A stretch of DNA of 64,000 bases, taken from assembly GCA_018265615.1 (NCBI GenBank), contig JABLYX010000019.1:13165-77164 (forward strand), in the 5' to 3' direction. Below the pieces are notes generated by a model that was not told where the DNA came from, did no database searches, and worked only from the letters and a program-made list of their open reading frames with translations. The stretch is from Lentisphaeria bacterium (lineage in GTDB: Bacteria; Verrucomicrobiota; Lentisphaeria; Victivallales; Victivallaceae). The stretch's first letter is position 1, and each line of letters starts with the position of its first letter. The translations under genes and the position numbers were made by a program. Below are positions 33,874 to 41,542 of the stretch, in pieces.

Positions 33874-34151
33874 CGCCGCTGCGCCGAATGCGCAGTATGT
33901 AATGCAGCATAATTGCCGCCCGGCGGGAAAGCGCGGCAGGCGCCGCGGAGCGGATGTGAACGGACAACACGGTTCGGCGCAGCCGAAGCGCGTTGCAGGG
34001 AGTGAATACGACGCAGGTGAACGCAGCGCAGCGAAGGCCCCCTGCCGCAGCCCGCGAAGCCCGCGACAAATTAACGTACATAACGCAGAAAAAACAAATA
34101 AAGCAGTTTAACCGCCAGAGTCCGAAAGCTCAATTCAACCAAAGGAGTTGC

Positions 34152-34910
34152 ATGATGAAAAATCCGAACCGCTCCCATCGCATACTGCGCATGATGCGCC
34201 TGTGCCCGTTCACATTGATCGAGCTCCTCGTCGTGATCGCGATCATCGCAATCCTCGCGGCGATGCTGCTGCCCGCGCTGCAGCAGGCGCGGGAACGCGG
34301 ACGCAGCTCCAACTGTCAGGGAAACCTCAAACAGCAAGGGATGCTCGGGCAGATGTACAGCAGCGACTTCAAAGACTACATCATGCCGGCACGCGGTGGA
34401 AACTGGTCGCGCAATCATGGATACATGCTGAAAAACAGGGCAGGATATCAGTTCGACGCCAAAATTTTCCAGTGTCCCAGCCAGACCGCCAAAAATTTCG
34501 CCGAAGATCCGGAAAAATTCCGGGGCAGCTACGGGATGAATGCCTGCAACCAGAAAGCAGTCGACGGAGAGAATCCCGCCGGCCTGATGGCCAGCCTCAC
34601 CGACCTGCCGGATAAGACTCTCCCCAGCCGCAAGTTGACACAGATTAAAAGCGCTTCATCCGTACTGATGATTCTGGAACTCTCCGCCAATTCAGTCGCC
34701 TATTATGCCAGCGGAGACATCAGAACCGTTTATCCGTCAACCGGTCAGACCGGCGTCCGCCATGCCGGATCGGCGAATTTCTGCTTTGTCGACGGCCACG
34801 TCTCCAGCTACAGACAGGCGGTCGTTTTCAGCGAAATCGCCTATGACGCCAGCAATTACAATGGACCGCTCTGGTACAAATATACCGGACACATGAAAGC
34901 AAACAAGTGA
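34152..34910 (+). CDS. DUF1559 protein with a prepilin-type N-terminal cleavage/methylation domain (H-X9-DG family)
   Basis: [28 protein letters not shown] class-III signal, followed by a DUF1559-like body. AAGGAG RBS before the ATG. Confidence 0.75.
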
Positions 34911-35949: not shown

Positions 35950-36633
35950 TCACGCCCAGAAGCCCTTTCCCCGGGCGTCATTGCGCTGGATATGGTGCTT
36001 GATGAAATTCATGATGAACTCCTGCTTTTCGCGGTCGAGGTTCCGGGCGATGAAACGTTTCCGGCCATTTCCCGGCCGGATCGCGACTCCGTATACGGGA
36101 GTGTCGTTCTGCCGGATTCCTGTGGCCTCCACCGCGACCTTGCCGATTTCGGAGAGTTCGCAGACACGGGTGACGCCGAAGCGGCCGATGCCGGAAAAGA
36201 CCTCCAGTCTGCCGCCGTTGATCCGCAGTTCACCTTTTCCGAAGAGCATCATCACGGTTCCGCCCAGGATGCCGAGTCCGACCAGCTGGAACGGGATGAG
36301 GAACAATTTCATCGGCCATGGAGCGCCGCTCCCGAACCATACGGCCGACGTGAAACCAGCGACCGCACCGCACCAGAACAGGCAGAAGAAGCAGAGCACC
36401 CACACCGTGTGCGAATAATAGCGGAAGCACAGGACCTCTTCATACGGGGGAACCGCTTCCACCCGGATCCCATGCGGCGGCAGGTCGGCCCGGAACAGCC
36501 GCTCTTCCCCCGCCGCCCGGGCCAGCTCCGCATAGCTGTGATTGGTTTTGCAGCCGCGGCAGTAGGCGAGGTCCGAGGAAACATTGAAATCCTCCTCCGG
36601 AATCTCCCGCCCGCATTCGGGACAATGAATCAT
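35950..36633 (-). CDS. Zinc-ribbon / 2-TM / PH-like domain membrane protein, paralog 1
   Basis: N-terminal CPECGREIP...CRGC zinc ribbon, two hydrophobic helices, C-terminal ~90-aa domain. It shares architecture with the two genes upstream. Confidence 0.5.
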   Translation of the reverse strand: MIHCPECGREIPEEDFNVSSDLAYCRGCKTNHSYAELARAAGEERLFRADLPPHGIRVEAVPPYEEVLCFRYYSHTVWVLCFFCLFWCGAVAGFTSAVWFGSGAPWPMKLFLIPFQLVGLGILGGTVMMLFGKGELRINGGRLEVFSGIGRFGVTRVCELSEIGKVAVEATGIRQNDTPVYGVAIRPGNGRKRFIARNLDREKQEFIMNFIKHHIQRNDARGKGFWA

Positions 36634-36738
36634 ATGCGTCCGTATCCTTTCATCCGTTTCGGGGAAGAACATAGCGTGTCTTCCGTAAAAATGCAAATCG
36701 GAACCCGGAAATTCAGCATCGGCACTCCGGGCTGCGGA

Positions 36739-37380
36739 TCACACGTCCTCCCGCTTCCGGGAGGCAACACGGGGAAACGGCGCGGAATCCGGATTTTCCC
36801 CGCCCGGTTCCAGGATCCGGCTTTCCAGCCATCGGACGGCGGCGGCAAGGCGGACCGGAGGCAGGCCAGTCCCGAACCGCTCCACGGTTCCGCTCCTCAA
36901 CAGGCAGTCGATCCGGTACACATAGCCGTTCCGGGAGCAGCTGCGCCCCAACTTGAAGAGCCGCACCTCATCCACCGGAATCTTCCGGAGGAAAACTCCG
37001 CGGGAAACGAGAAAGAAGCCGGGTACACGCCGGATCACCAGATGTCCGAAGAGCGACTGCAGCATAATCAGCAGCAGTATTACCCAGAAAATCAGCTGCA
37101 CCCACCACAGCGCCGGATCGTGCCGCACACTTCCCGAAACACAGACCGCTGTATACGCAGTCAGCACCAGCGGCATGAGGCAGCTCTCCGGCGTGATGCA
37201 TCCGACCCGCAGCGTCCGGCTCTCATCCAGCTCGCGTACCTGCGGCACCGTCCGCCGACCGGACAGCGCCGCAAGCCCGGCGGACGGACAGCGGCAGCCG
37301 CAGAAGGAACACCTGACCCAGGAACCCATTTTCGCCTTCCGGGGAATTTCTTTCGCACAGAACGGACATTTCAGCATCAT
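36739..37380 (-). CDS. Zinc-ribbon / 2-TM / PH-like domain membrane protein, paralog 2
   Basis: CPFCAKEIP...CSFCGC zinc ribbon, two TM helices, C-terminal domain (RLFKLGRSCSRNGYVYRI...). Confidence 0.5.
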   Translation of the reverse strand: MMLKCPFCAKEIPRKAKMGSWVRCSFCGCRCPSAGLAALSGRRTVPQVRELDESRTLRVGCITPESCLMPLVLTAYTAVCVSGSVRHDPALWWVQLIFWVILLLIMLQSLFGHLVIRRVPGFFLVSRGVFLRKIPVDEVRLFKLGRSCSRNGYVYRIDCLLRSGTVERFGTGLPPVRLAAAVRWLESRILEPGGENPDSAPFPRVASRKREDV

Positions 37381-37445
37381 GCATCCTCCCCTGTCATCTC
37401 CGCACCCCCGGCAACCCTCCGTAACCCGGCAACGGAAAATGCGGA

Positions 37446-38088
37446 TCATGCGTCTTTGTCCTTCCAGCCCGTAACCTTCGCCAAATCCGGCGGCGCCTCG
37501 TCCATGCGCCGGTTCATCCAGTCAATCGCGGCGGCGAAGCGGTACGGGGAGCGCTCGCCGCCGACCGAAAATGAACTGCTGTCCCAAAGTGTAAACCCGA
37601 TCCGGAAATGCCGGCCGAACCGGCCATACTCGAAATATTCAAGCGCGATCTGTCTGATCCCGTCAAACGGGATGCGTCTCTCCCGGAATCCCGCTTTCAG
37701 CACAAACATCCGCCCTTCGCACGTGATCCGCATCGGCCCGGCCCCCCCCGGAGCAAAGCGAATAAAGCCGGAAAGCGCCGCATCCCGCCAGCATGAGCAG
37801 AACGGCAAACAGCGCCGGGATGAAAAACATCCCCGCAAAGCATGCCGCGCAACCGGCGGCCAGCCCTCCGAGGAGAATCTTCTCCGCGCCGGTCTCCGCC
37901 GAAAGCACCAGGTCCCCCGACGAATTTCCGGCGATGTCGGCCACCCGCACCATCCCGCCGGAACAATACTCTGCAAGCTCGTCCTCGTCGAACTCACAGC
38001 CGCAATCGGCGCACCGCAAAGGAGTGTCCTGAAGAAGCAGCCTCCTTTGAACCAGTTCACCGCAGCAGCAGAGACATTTCAAAGACAT
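37446..38088 (-). pseudogene. Paralog 3 of the zinc-ribbon/2-TM/PH-like family, split by a frameshift at a G8 homopolymer (coding-strand Gs = Cs at 37742-37749)
   Basis: N-terminal part (MSLKCLCCCGELV...CADCGC + TM helices) is in the frame of ORF 37663..38118. C-terminal part (PMRITCEGRMFVLKAGF...) is in the frame of ORF 37446..38060. Both frames read through the C8/G8 run. A 1-nt contraction (G7) or 2-nt expansion (G10) would fuse them. Confidence 0.45.
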
Positions 38089-38308
38089 ACTCTCACTCCC
38101 GCTGAGAATTCGCAGCAAACCGCGTCCGAATCATCCGGAACCTCACAACAGAAAGTACCGTTTTTTTCTGCGAATGCAAGCTCAGGGGAAAAAAAGTCGT
38201 TTTTTTTGTTTGCAGGGGGGAATTGCACTTTGATTTTAGCGGAAAATGTGATAACATAAAAACAGGGCTGATCCCCGTCGAACAACCCCGAACGAAAGGA
38301 GGCGAATC

Positions 38309-38884
38309 ATGTGGCAGGAGATCAATGAATTTCTGGCCGGCGGACGCAATATTTATCTGTTTATCGCCGTGACCGGCAGCGTGATTCTCGCTCTGCAGTT
38401 CATCCTCAGCATGACCGGGCTTCATGCGGATGTCGATGCGGACGCCTCCGGAGCCGATTTCGACGTGAACGCGAACGACGCCGCCGATGTGGCGGGTTTG
38501 AACTTCTTCTCGCTGAAGGCGATCATGGCGTTCATCACGTTCTTCGGCTGGGGCGGCTTCTTCTACGGCCACCTCGGCATCGGGGGGCTCGGCGTCGCCG
38601 TCATCAGCGGAACGGTCATGATGATCCTCACGGCGCTCCTCGTCTCGCTCATGCTGAAGCTCCAGCAGTCGGGCAACATCACGCCGCAGGAGCTCATCGG
38701 CAAACACGGAACCGTCTACCTGACGATTCCGGCCGGGCGCGCGCCGGGCGGAATGGTGACGGTCAGCCTGCCGGGCTGCACCCGGCAGATCAGCGCGCGC
38801 GCCGATATCGAATTCACGACCGGCAGCTCCGTCGTAATCACCAGAGACCTCGGCGACGGCAGTTACCTCGTCGGCCGAAGCTGA
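38309..38884 (+). CDS. NfeD-like (YqiJ-type) membrane protein with a C-terminal OB-fold; partner of the downstream flotillin
   Basis: Membrane helices followed by an NfeD beta-barrel segment (GKHGTVYLTIPAGRAPGGMVTVSLPG...). Position upstream of an SPFH gene matches the yqiJ-yqiK arrangement. Confidence 0.65.
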   Translation: MWQEINEFLAGGRNIYLFIAVTGSVILALQFILSMTGLHADVDADASGADFDVNANDAADVAGLNFFSLKAIMAFITFFGWGGFFYGHLGIGGLGVAVISGTVMMILTALLVSLMLKLQQSGNITPQELIGKHGTVYLTIPAGRAPGGMVTVSLPGCTRQISARADIEFTTGSSVVITRDLGDGSYLVGRS

Positions 38885-38930
38885 ACCGGAGAATACCGCA
38901 TTGAAAATCTTTCTCAATTATCTGCCGATC

Positions 38931-39062
38931 ATGGTCGGCGTCGCCGCGGGCGTTTCCGCAGCGTTTCTGTTCACCTTCTACCTGAACCGGAAAAAGAAAA
39001 AGAAGCTCAGGCGGAAGAACAAGTACGCAGTCAATCCGAATCCATATAATTTTCACCCTTAA
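38931..39062 (+). CDS. Possible small single-TM protein with a poly-Lys tail between the nfeD-like gene and flotillin
   Basis: Manual translation: MVGVAAGVSAAFLFTFYLNRKKKKKLRRKNKYAVNPNPYNFHP*. An in-frame TTG at 38901 would add 10 aa. No clear RBS. Confidence 0.3.
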   Translation: MVGVAAGVSAAFLFTFYLNRKKKKKLRRKNKYAVNPNPYNFHP

Positions 39063-39084
39063 CGAATCAAGGAGTTTGTCAAGC

Positions 39085-40668
39085 ATGGGAGTCGTCATCA
39101 TCGCAACCATCGCCGGGTTCGTCATCCTGATGTTCTTCATCTCGCTGGTGACCTGGTACCGCAAGTGCCCTTCCGACCGGATCATGATCATCTACGGCAA
39201 GACCGGCGGGAACCAGGCTGCGAAGTGCATCCACGGCGGTGCGAAATTCGTCTGGCCCGTCGTGCAGGACTACGGATACATCTCACTGCGTCCGCTGCAG
39301 ATCGCCGTGAATCTCGACAACGCGCTGTGCAAACAGAATATCCGCATCAACGTGCCGTCGGTCTTCACAGTCGGCGTGTCGACAAGCCCCGAGATCATGG
39401 GCAACGCAGCCGAGCGCCTGTTCGGCCAGAGCCCCGAAGCGATCGCCGAGCTCGCAAAGGACATCATCTTCGGCCAGCTGCGTCTCGTCATCGCCTCGAT
39501 GATGATCGAGGAGATCAACGCCGACCGCGAAACCTTCCTGCGCGCCGTCGAAGCGAACGTGGCCGAAGAGCTCAAAAAGATCGGCCTTGAACTCCTGAAC
39601 GTGAACATCACCGACATCACCGACGAATCCGGCTACATCTCGGCCATCGGGCAGCGCGCCGCCGCGGGCGCGATCAACAAAGCGAAGGTCGACGTGGCCG
39701 AAGAACAGCGCAAGGGCAGCATCGGTGCGGCCGAGGCGAACAAGCTCGAACGCGTCGCCGTGGCGAAAGCGGAGGCCGAAGCCGCCTCCGGCGAGGCCGA
39801 TGCAGACCGCGAACGGCGCATCGCCGTCAAGCAGGCCGAAGCTGCCGCAATCGCGGGCGAGGCCGACGCCGACCGCGCCCAGCGCATCGCCGTCAAACAG
39901 GCCGAAGCCGCCGCGGCGGCGGGCGAAGCCGACGCCGACCGCGACCGCCGTATCGCCGTCAAACAGGCGGATTCGACCGCGACCCAGGGCGAGAACGTCT
40001 CGGCGATCGAAATCGCGCAATCCAACGCCACGCGCTCCGAACAGGAAGCCGAGGCGTACCGCCGCGCCGAAGCGGCCCGCCAGGTGGCGGCCGCCCAGAT
40101 CGAAAAGGCGAAGTACGAGGCCGAAGCCGACGCCCAGATCTCCCGCGCGAAGATGGAGATGGAGCGCCAGCGCGCCGAAGTCATCGTCCCGGCGGAAATC
40201 CAGAAGAGCCAGATCGAAATCGCGGCCGACGCCGAGGCCGAAAAGCTGCGCCGCGAGGCGAAAGGCGAAGCCGATGCGATTTTCGCGAAGCTCGAAGCCG
40301 AGGCGCGCGGCAATTACGAGATCCTGAAAGCGAAGGGCGAGGGCTATCGCGCCATTATCGAAGCGTGCGAGAACGACTCGAACTCCGCCTCGAAGATGCT
40401 GCTCATCGAAAAGCTCCAGGAGATCGTCGCACTGCAGACCGAAGCGATCAAGGGCATCAAGATCGACAAGGTCACAGTCTGGGACGGCGGCAGCAAGACC
40501 GCCGACGGCAAGACCACCACGGCGAACTTCCTCTCCGGCATGCTGCAGAGCCTGCCGCCGCTGCACGATGTCGCCGGCATGGCCGGGCTCGACCTGCCGG
40601 ATTACCTCGGCAAGGTCAAGAGCGACAAACGCGACACGGTCGAGGCGGAAGCGACTCCCGCCGAATAA
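39085..40668 (+). CDS. Flotillin-family SPFH/band-7 protein (YqiK/FloT-like)
   Basis: N-terminal TM anchor, SPFH domain, long Ala/Glu-rich coiled-coil with EA repeats, conserved C-terminal region. AAGGAG RBS before the ATG at 39085. Confidence 0.85.
   Translation: MGVVIIATIAGFVILMFFISLVTWYRKCPSDRIMIIYGKTGGNQAAKCIHGGAKFVWPVVQDYGYISLRPLQIAVNLDNALCKQNIRINVPSVFTVGVSTSPEIMGNAAERLFGQSPEAIAELAKDIIFGQLRLVIASMMIEEINADRETFLRAVEANVAEELKKIGLELLNVNITDITDESGYISAIGQRAAAGAINKAKVDVAEEQRKGSIGAAEANKLERVAVAKAEAEAASGEADADRERRIAVKQAEAAAIAGEADADRAQRIAVKQAEAAAAAGEADADRDRRIAVKQADSTATQGENVSAIEIAQSNATRSEQEAEAYRRAEAARQVAAAQIEKAKYEAEADAQISRAKMEMERQRAEVIVPAEIQKSQIEIAADAEAEKLRREAKGEADAIFAKLEAEARGNYEILKAKGEGYRAIIEACENDSNSASKMLLIEKLQEIVALQTEAIKGIKIDKVTVWDGGSKTADGKTTTANFLSGMLQSLPPLHDVAGMAGLDLPDYLGKVKSDKRDTVEAEATPAE
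39791..39988 (+). repeat. 3 x 66-bp in-frame tandem repeat inside the flotillin gene, encoding GEADADRxRRIAVKQAEAAAxA
   Basis: Units at 39791-39856, 39857-39922 and 39923-39988 are ~85% identical at the DNA level. Confidence 0.7.
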
Positions 40669-40732: not shown

Positions 40733-41542
40733 ATGAGAACCCGCATGATTTCCGCTTTTTTCGCTGCCGCGCTTCTCGGAGGCGGCTGCAGCACCGTTCC
40801 GTCGGCGCCGGAGGGAGTAATCCCATTCACAGAAATGACGGTCAGCCCCGGAGTTCAGGCTCCGGACACCCGGCTTCAGGCGGCGGCGGCTTCCGGTGAC
40901 GCGGATGCCGCATTCCGCTACGGCCTGCGGCTGCTTTTTTCCGGCGACAGCGGCCGGCCGGAGCTCCTGCCGGAATTTCCGGGGGGGGCGCCGTACGGAC
41001 TGGATTCTGCCAACCGGAGCTATCTGTGGATCGCAAAAGCCGCCGGACTCGGCAACCCCGCGGCCAAATACTGCATGAGCGTTTTCCTGCTGCAGAACGG
41101 AGAACGGCCCGGGGAGGCGATCCGGCTGCTGCAGGAAGCGGCGGAAGCCGGGGAACCCCATGCCCGGAACAGCCTGGGCGCCTGTCATTATTTCGGATAC
41201 GGTGTCGAACCCGATGAAACCAGAGCCGTGATGCTTTTCGCCTCGGCGGCGGAACAGGGACATCCGGCGGCGCTGTATAATCTCGGCGTCTGCCTGTTGA
41301 ACGGCCGCGGCGTGCGGCCGGATCCGGAAGCCGCGGCCGGACTGTTCCGGAAAGCCGCTTTCCGCGGAGTGAAACCCGCCCGGACAAACCTGGCGTGGTG
41401 TTACCGGAACGGAGTCGGTGTCGAAGCTTCCGCCGACAAGGCGAAATTCTGGGAGGAAACCGAACTTCCGGGACCGGACGGCACGGAGGAAAGGTTTCCG
41501 GAACCGGAGGGGCGGCTTGACATTCCGGGCAAACAGCAGTAA
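40733..41542 (+). CDS. Sel1-repeat (SLR/TPR-like) lipoprotein
   Basis: Lipoprotein signal (LLGGGCS) plus ~5 Sel1-like repeats (AxxxYxLGxCYxxGxGVxxDxxxAxxWFxKAAEQG pattern). Confidence 0.7.
   Translation: MRTRMISAFFAAALLGGGCSTVPSAPEGVIPFTEMTVSPGVQAPDTRLQAAAASGDADAAFRYGLRLLFSGDSGRPELLPEFPGGAPYGLDSANRSYLWIAKAAGLGNPAAKYCMSVFLLQNGERPGEAIRLLQEAAEAGEPHARNSLGACHYFGYGVEPDETRAVMLFASAAEQGHPAALYNLGVCLLNGRGVRPDPEAAAGLFRKAAFRGVKPARTNLAWCYRNGVGVEASADKAKFWEETELPGPDGTEERFPEPEGRLDIPGKQQ

Follow-up and report, generated by a model that had tools for sequence, protein, structure and literature searches.

A length-polymorphic poly-G tract in one of three tandem zinc-ribbon membrane protein genes of a Lentisphaeria bacterium

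The stretch of DNA considered here, referred to as the window, consists of 64,000 nt of contig JABLYX010000019.1 from a Lentisphaeria bacterium, and its numbering is used throughout. On its minus strand, between positions 35950 and 38088, it carries three consecutive genes of one layout, namely an N-terminal CxxC...CxxC ribbon, two transmembrane (TM) helices, and a C-terminal domain of about 90 amino acids (aa); these are called gene 1, gene 2, and gene 3. In gene 3, the reading frame is broken at a run of eight G residues. The main finding of this work is that intact (ON) and broken (OFF) alleles of gene 3, which differ by one G in this run, coexist in nature. Our verdict is that the tract is slippage-prone and length-polymorphic and toggles one redundant paralog, and that phase variation is plausible.

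Two lengths of the poly-G tract in gene 3

The three minus-strand genes with their common ribbon, 2-TM, and C-terminal layout had been described in an initial annotation of the window, made from the letters alone, together with a frame change located exactly at the G8 run (a C run at 37742–37749 on the forward strand). The layout is indeed seen in the sequence, and both the coordinates and the frame logic are correct (Table 1). The tract codes for a Gly-Gly linker directly after the second TM helix (TM2). The G8 product of gene 3 is a protein of 141 aa that comprises the Zn ribbon, the two TM helices, and a 22-aa out-of-frame tail, and this N-terminal fragment is annotated as MBS1370046.1 (HPZ91_08850) in a “Lentisphaeria bacterium” metagenome-assembled genome (MAG). 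With one G removed, gene 3 reads ...LYSLCSGGAGPMRITCEG... and encodes a 213-aa protein.

When the repaired gene 3 was searched against 5.8 billion proteins, the sole cluster matched was that of the N-terminal fragment, whose 90% cluster holds eight sequences, with lengths of 141, 85, 87, and 95 aa as well as two of 213 aa. The contigs behind all members of this cluster were fetched and gave ten independent metagenome assemblies (Logan, ENA) of the same species, which match the window with 98.9–100% identity along as much as 4.4 kb; with the window itself, they form the 11-sequence alignment (4.4 kb) used below. The tract is G8 in the window and in eight assemblies (L001, L002, L005, L006, L007, L008, L009, and L011; sources SRR24110886, SRR11805531, ERR13963995, ERZ28655844, ERZ27259157, ERZ27275924, SRR31366838, and SRR23294238), and G7 in two others, L003 (ERR13988580) and L004 (ERR13960177), the OFF state being the commoner one (9 of the 11 sequences). 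Both G7 assemblies encode exactly the predicted 213-aa protein (P0005 and P0006), which bears out the earlier proposal that a 1-nt contraction would restore full-length gene 3, and the survey for tract-length variation that had been suggested with it has thus returned both lengths. Gene 3 has three features of a contingency gene: an intragenic repeat, a change in repeat length that flips the frame between intact and truncated, and lengths that differ among close strains. The run accessions of both G7 assemblies and of one G8 assembly (ERR13963995) lie in the ERR139xxxxx range, and these three may have a common project of origin. JGI metagenomes, scanned for exact copies of the left flank together with the tract, gave no match.

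A sequencing indel had also been put forward as the cause of the G8 frameshift. The repetition of G8 in eight other assemblies, from several projects and assemblers, excludes an assembly or sequencing error in the window. The wider form of this explanation, in which the tract has a single true length and one set of calls, G7 or G8, is wrong, can point to the error-prone nature of homopolymers and to the short G7 contigs (3.9 kb), which suggest low coverage; it is nevertheless very improbable, since G8 is found in nine sequences of different origin (NCBI, ENA, and Logan) and G7 was recovered twice, on different haplotypes. A second G8 run at 40981–40988 (+), 3.2 kb from the tract, was used as a control: it lies in frame (EFPGGAPY) within a Sel1-repeat gene (40733–41542), direct reading gives G8 both for the window and for one further sample (L001/L010), and both members of the Sel1 protein cluster (five contigs) are full-length, at 269 aa. 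These readings and the full-length protein argue against a general G8 sequencing artefact. The L009 contig (SRR31366838; L009:1–35) begins 27 nt upstream of the G tract; an assembly-graph bubble was considered as the origin of this start and discarded, because the 27-nt offset misfits the branch point expected at k=31, the value with which the Logan assemblies were presumably built.

Table 1. Positions of the array, its poly-G tract, and the adjoining divergent region in the window
Feature	Positions	Strand	Description
Gene 1	35950–36633	−	227 aa, N-terminus MIHCPECG; typical family member; ortholog of the single-copy gene in other Victivallis MAGs
Gene 2	36739–37380	−	divergent paralog, 213 aa, N-terminus MMLKCPFC
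Gene 3, N-terminal frame	37663–38088	−	ATG at 38088; within open reading frame (ORF) 37663–38118
Gene 3, C-terminal frame	37446–37741	−	encodes the PH-like domain; within ORF 37446–38060; stop at 37446
Poly-G tract	37742–37749	−	G8 in the window; junction of TM helix 2 and the PH-like domain of gene 3
Intergenic/promoter region, divergent	38089–38308		A/T homopolymers; no variation among assemblies; partly conserved in L012
Divergent operon	38309–40668	+	191-aa membrane protein (38309–38884); 43-aa ORF (38931–39062); flotillin-like SPFH/Band_7 protein (39076–40668)

Slippage, recombination, and the broken allele

Intragenic poly-G/C contingency loci, which vary in phase by strand slippage, are known from Campylobacter jejuni, Neisseria, and Helicobacter. 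Gene 3 resembles them in that the G run lies within the coding region, a 1-nt change toggles the frame, and both lengths occur in near-identical natural strains. However, the tract of gene 3 is short (G7/G8), such tracts are not in excess in the window, and switching is here a candidate; in addition, the gene 3 product, predicted to face the cytoplasm, is neither a surface structure nor one that modifies glycans. To our knowledge, phase variation has not been described in Lentisphaeria, to which this Victivallis-like host belongs. The frameshift itself is an ordinary kind of event, a known phenomenon in a new host and a new gene family.

If gene 3 is a contingency-like gene, it would be a genuine, recently functional, and promoter-proximal member of a three-gene array encoding cytoplasm-facing membrane proteins, each built of a Zn ribbon, a TM hairpin, and a PH-like domain. 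The G7/G8 run after TM2 would be a slipped-strand hot spot, with G7 giving the full 213-aa protein and G8 giving the 141-aa protein that keeps the ribbon and the TM hairpin and lacks the PH-like domain. Both alleles circulate in natural populations of one species, OFF more commonly than ON, and the locus would behave like a simple intragenic poly-G phase-variable gene whose toggling would affect one module of a probable multi-module membrane complex. We infer that the length change arises by replication slippage, in a reversible and frequent manner, and hold the chances that the run is a hot spot toggling gene 3 between the full-length form and the form without the PH-like domain to be about even. 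The contingency locus proposed in the initial annotation stands in part: the tract, the frame switch, and the length polymorphism between samples support it, whereas the promoter homopolymers are invariant and recombination explains the haplotype pattern equally well.

Several observations weigh against a switch. G7/G8 is at the short end of the known phase-variable tracts, and phase-varied products are usually surface structures, while both soluble domains are here placed in the cytoplasm. The effective sample amounts to about four G8 haplotypes versus two G7 haplotypes, five of the nine G8 sequences being a single near-identical haplotype. G/C runs of at least 8 nt are not in excess in the window, with two observed versus about 2.1 expected under a first-order Markov model; the G+C content of the window is 61%, and GGG makes up about 20% of its Gly codons. 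Moreover, a conserved Gly motif (family consensus LFGxGE) accounts for the G run, and the gene 1 orthologs of three other species have an in-frame G6–G7 run at the same junction. Finally, SNPs (single-nucleotide polymorphisms) 38085 and 37863, the latter 114 bp from the tract, fail the four-gamete test, all four combinations being present. Both alleles of these two SNPs are found with each tract state, and because flanking SNPs fail this test, recombination explains the mixing of tracts and haplotypes as well as recurrent slippage does.

These patterns lead to an explanation in which G8 is a segregating loss-of-function allele, produced by a one-off slippage from an ancestral G7 in a redundant paralog and spread by recombination, with no adaptive or frequent switching. 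We regard it as possible, if somewhat doubtful. The OFF state of the majority and the evident recombination in the region agree with it, as does the lack of tract enrichment. The same holds for the disruptions that recur in such arrays without long repeats, one of which is found in gene 2 of L003 and the other in the first copy of the L017 array described below, and for the share of nonsynonymous SNPs, which is three of four in gene 3 and three of seven in gene 2. On the other hand, G7 occurs on two different local haplotypes, and the G8 copies are free of secondary lesions.

The latter point emerges from the 11-sequence alignment, in which there are 20 SNP sites (three of them adjacent, beside a 9-bp insertion) and three indel polymorphisms. 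The first indel is the G7/G8 tract itself. The second is an in-frame 9-bp insertion (GTTGAACGC) at 37391, present in L005 and L008 along with the three adjacent SNPs, and its site lies between the gene 3 stop and the MMLKC start of gene 2, inside the 5′ extension that gene callers give to gene 2 by placing its start at ATG 37449, where it overlaps the gene 3 stop. The third, a G4-to-G3 deletion at 36949 in gene 2 (TTGGGGCGC to TTGGGCGC; L003:1271–1822), is found only in L003, where gene 3 is G7 and intact and gene 2 is cut to 183 aa; this deletion could be real or an assembly error at low coverage. All four SNPs of gene 3 are upstream of the tract (S2P, Q20L, A50V, and one synonymous). Apart from the tract, no stop codon, other indel, or further disabling lesion is present in gene 3 in any of the 11 sequences, and the plain pseudogene with accumulated disabling mutations, named earlier as an alternative, is not what is observed. 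The 296 nt downstream of the tract, which are out of frame in G8 strains, contain no SNP in the 11 sequences; at 0.1–1% divergence, neither this result nor the lack of secondary lesions carries much power.

This clean downstream frame, perfectly preserved though G8 is widespread, also bears on a further explanation, in which the G8 allele is still expressed, either through slipping of RNA polymerase or a +1 shift of the ribosome on the G run, or as a split gene made of the 141-aa ribbon-TM protein and a 95-aa PH-like protein starting from the internal ATG at 37729–37731, in the C-terminal frame. This ATG follows the G run at a distance of 8 nt, and the run might act as a Shine-Dalgarno mimic; the corresponding product was called by one gene predictor (P0008), and in addition, L017 has a naturally split copy of the gene. 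We consider continued expression improbable, given that frame preservation is statistically weak, that no stimulatory element was identified, and that an intact G7 allele, superfluous for a programmed event, exists.

Regarding the promoter region, the homopolymers that had been read as a further sign of phase variation in 38119–38308 do exist (on the forward strand T7 at 38161–38167, A7 at 38189–38195, and T8 at 38200–38207, plus a C6 in coding orientation). Their lengths are constant: no homopolymer length variant was found in 38119–38308 in the seven assemblies with full coverage or the two with partial coverage, and the whole intergenic region, including the A7 and a T run, is homologous to that upstream of the single-copy ortholog in another species (L012), so that the homopolymers offer no indication of promoter phase variation. 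The A/T runs have the appearance of commonplace elements in a divergent promoter region that both species share. Over some 40 nt (CCCTGTTTTTATGKTATCACRTTTTCCGCTAAAATCAAAG), the two divergent intergenic regions are nearly identical, at 38220–38262 (−) in the window and at L012:925–965, although the proteins are only about 60% identical; this block probably serves both species as a promoter or operator, either of the flotillin operon or of the ribbon gene. A sigma-70 consensus scan of the intergenic region gave no site at the thresholds used. Terminator-like matches were not credited, as they are located inside genes.

A zinc-ribbon family with a PH-like fold

The tandem paralogy of the three genes, proposed from their common layout, is confirmed by the alignment of genes 2 and 3 and by a family profile. 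Gene 2 and repaired gene 3 can be aligned over their entire lengths, the frameshift site included, with 26% identity (E=7e-7). Gene 1 has no significant similarity to gene 2 or gene 3 by BLASTP, and hhalign, run with the gene 1 pair versus the gene 2/3 pair, aligned the ribbon alone (probability 56%). Homology is established by a profile hidden Markov model (HMM) of the family, which matches all three genes: gene 1 scores 223 bits (E=1.5e-64), gene 2 scores 32 bits over its full length (E=3.5e-6), and repaired gene 3 scores 15 bits over TM2 and the C-terminal domain, a match that spans the frameshift. By these scores, gene 1 is a typical member, and genes 2 and 3 are strongly divergent members that are linked to it transitively. 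In word-based searches of the 5.8 billion proteins, genes 2 and 3 matched nothing outside the same species, and gene 1 had a single relative, 60% identical.

A profile of the four local sequences, searched against 1.84 billion cluster representatives, recovered 554 representatives (at 50% identity) with E≤1e-3, nearly all of them 210–240 aa long and matched over their full length. The ribbon consists of two CxxC pairs whose four Cys show, among 104 members, either no variation or a conservation of at least 90%, and metal binding is predicted. Zn_ribbon models of Pfam and NCBIfam match subsets of the family; for the three proteins and the 104 members, these Zn-ribbon matches are the only ones in Pfam and NCBIfam, with no model over the TM and C-terminal part. 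Beyond its ribbon, the family is therefore uncharacterized, as had been supposed. PADLOC and PHROGs scans were negative, a PDB sequence-profile search returned zinc fingers alone and did not recover 8kei, and a weak DUF2244 match is limited to 2 of the 104 members.

The structure of repaired gene 3 was modelled with AlphaFold2 from an alignment of 104 sequences, with a mean predicted local distance difference test (pLDDT) score of 77.5 and values of about 85–94 over the C-terminal domain. The modelled elements are the ribbon, a short strand (residues 60–62), two long helices (68–84 and 89–112), six strands, and a C-terminal helix (181–197). The predicted fold is a PH domain with a TM hairpin and appears closest to EROS/CYBC1, though with a TM-score of only 0.40–0.49. 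The ribbon and the positive residues that follow TM2 point to a cytoplasmic location of both soluble parts.

In EROS, a pair of membrane helices is described as splitting the PH domain, with six strands and then a C-terminal helix coming after them (PMC11161758), and the protein has been reported as the ortholog of the photosystem I assembly factor Ycf4 (PMC5379978). The model of repaired gene 3 likewise has a PH fold, a TM hairpin ahead of six strands, and a C-terminal helix. EROS/CYBC1 and Ycf4 (DUF4564) are membrane-complex assembly chaperones whose PH domain is interrupted by a TM hairpin, as predicted for the present family. In contrast to them, the present family is bacterial, has a Zn ribbon added at the N-terminus, and is found as tandem arrays and as fusions. 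The EROS/Ycf4 sequence models of Pfam gave no match at E≤10 for the TM-PH parts or at E≤0.01 for the 104 members, and the likeness, as far as the model goes, is a resemblance in fold and not family membership. The bPH_2 (YdbS/YdbT) type offers a second comparison, as it also has two TM helices followed by a small PH-like beta-sandwich and a C-terminal helix. The earlier suggestion of a bPH_2-like C-terminal domain holds for the PH-like fold seen in the model, but not for the sequence, since Pfam gave no bPH_2 (PF03703) match to the TM and C-terminal part even at E≤10.

Arrays, fusions, and the flotillin neighbourhood

L012 and the MAG L013, which are Victivallis-like, have a single 227-aa ortholog of gene 1, which is divergent to and adjoins the same operon as in the window, and the MAG L014 has an ortholog with 58% identity. 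The window species has two extra, very divergent copies between the shared promoter and gene 1. Tandem copies, for which a survey of related genomes had been proposed, were found in two other genomes. L016 has at least three, and L017 (GCA_031547325.1, JAVBSD010000114.1; L017:1–3189) has a closely similar flotillin-like gene followed by three copies on the same strand. In L017, the first copy has come apart into two ORFs with an ATGA overlap, one of 50 aa with the ribbon and one of 162 aa with the TM-PH part, and this split arises after a short deletion beside only a G4 run, with no long repeat. A CsgG-like gene is convergent to the L017 array.

Natural fusions of complete ribbon-TM-PH modules are also found, with three modules in P0013 (703 aa) and two in P0030, P0035, and P0042 (445–461 aa). 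The recurrence of tandem arrays and of fused modules suggests that the modules work together, and the product of the array is probably a multi-module membrane complex.

Operons of flotillin (SPFH) proteins have accessory membrane proteins, such as NfeD partners. The family gene resembles these accessory proteins in that it adjoins an operon for a membrane protein and a flotillin-like protein in the window species, L012, and L013. Unlike NfeD partners, the 191-aa neighbour has no NfeD match in Pfam, and the linkage is not fixed, as the family member of L015, a single copy, has no flotillin gene nearby; the functional link to flotillin is putative. A more far-reaching proposal is that the three genes specify exchangeable modules of an EROS/Ycf4-like chaperone or scaffold of the bacterial membrane, which would act with the adjacent flotillin system. 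Slippage on the poly-G tract of the module nearest the promoter, perhaps polar on genes 2 and 1, would then vary the composition of this cytoplasm-facing complex within the population. We hold this proposal to be unlikely.

A gene for a prepilin-type N-terminal cleavage/methylation protein was recognized by eye at 33993–34910 (+). Proteins of this type are characteristic of Lentisphaerae and Verrucomicrobia, in agreement with a Victivallis-like origin.

Should the tract indeed switch, it would be a first candidate contingency locus in Victivallis-like gut Lentisphaeria, and its target would be a cytoplasm-facing membrane protein in place of a surface antigen; if, in addition, the proposal of EROS/Ycf4-like modules were true, the locus would represent phase variation of an internal membrane-organizing factor, undescribed in this phylum. 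Independently of switching, the analysis defines a widespread and unannotated family of about 550 representatives that combines a Zn ribbon with a predicted EROS/Ycf4-like TM-hairpin PH fold. More interesting than the frameshift polymorphism is this by-product, a family that forms arrays and is linked to flotillin; its arrays, its fusions, and its flotillin-operon neighbourhood in this lineage offer a concrete starting point for studies of its function.

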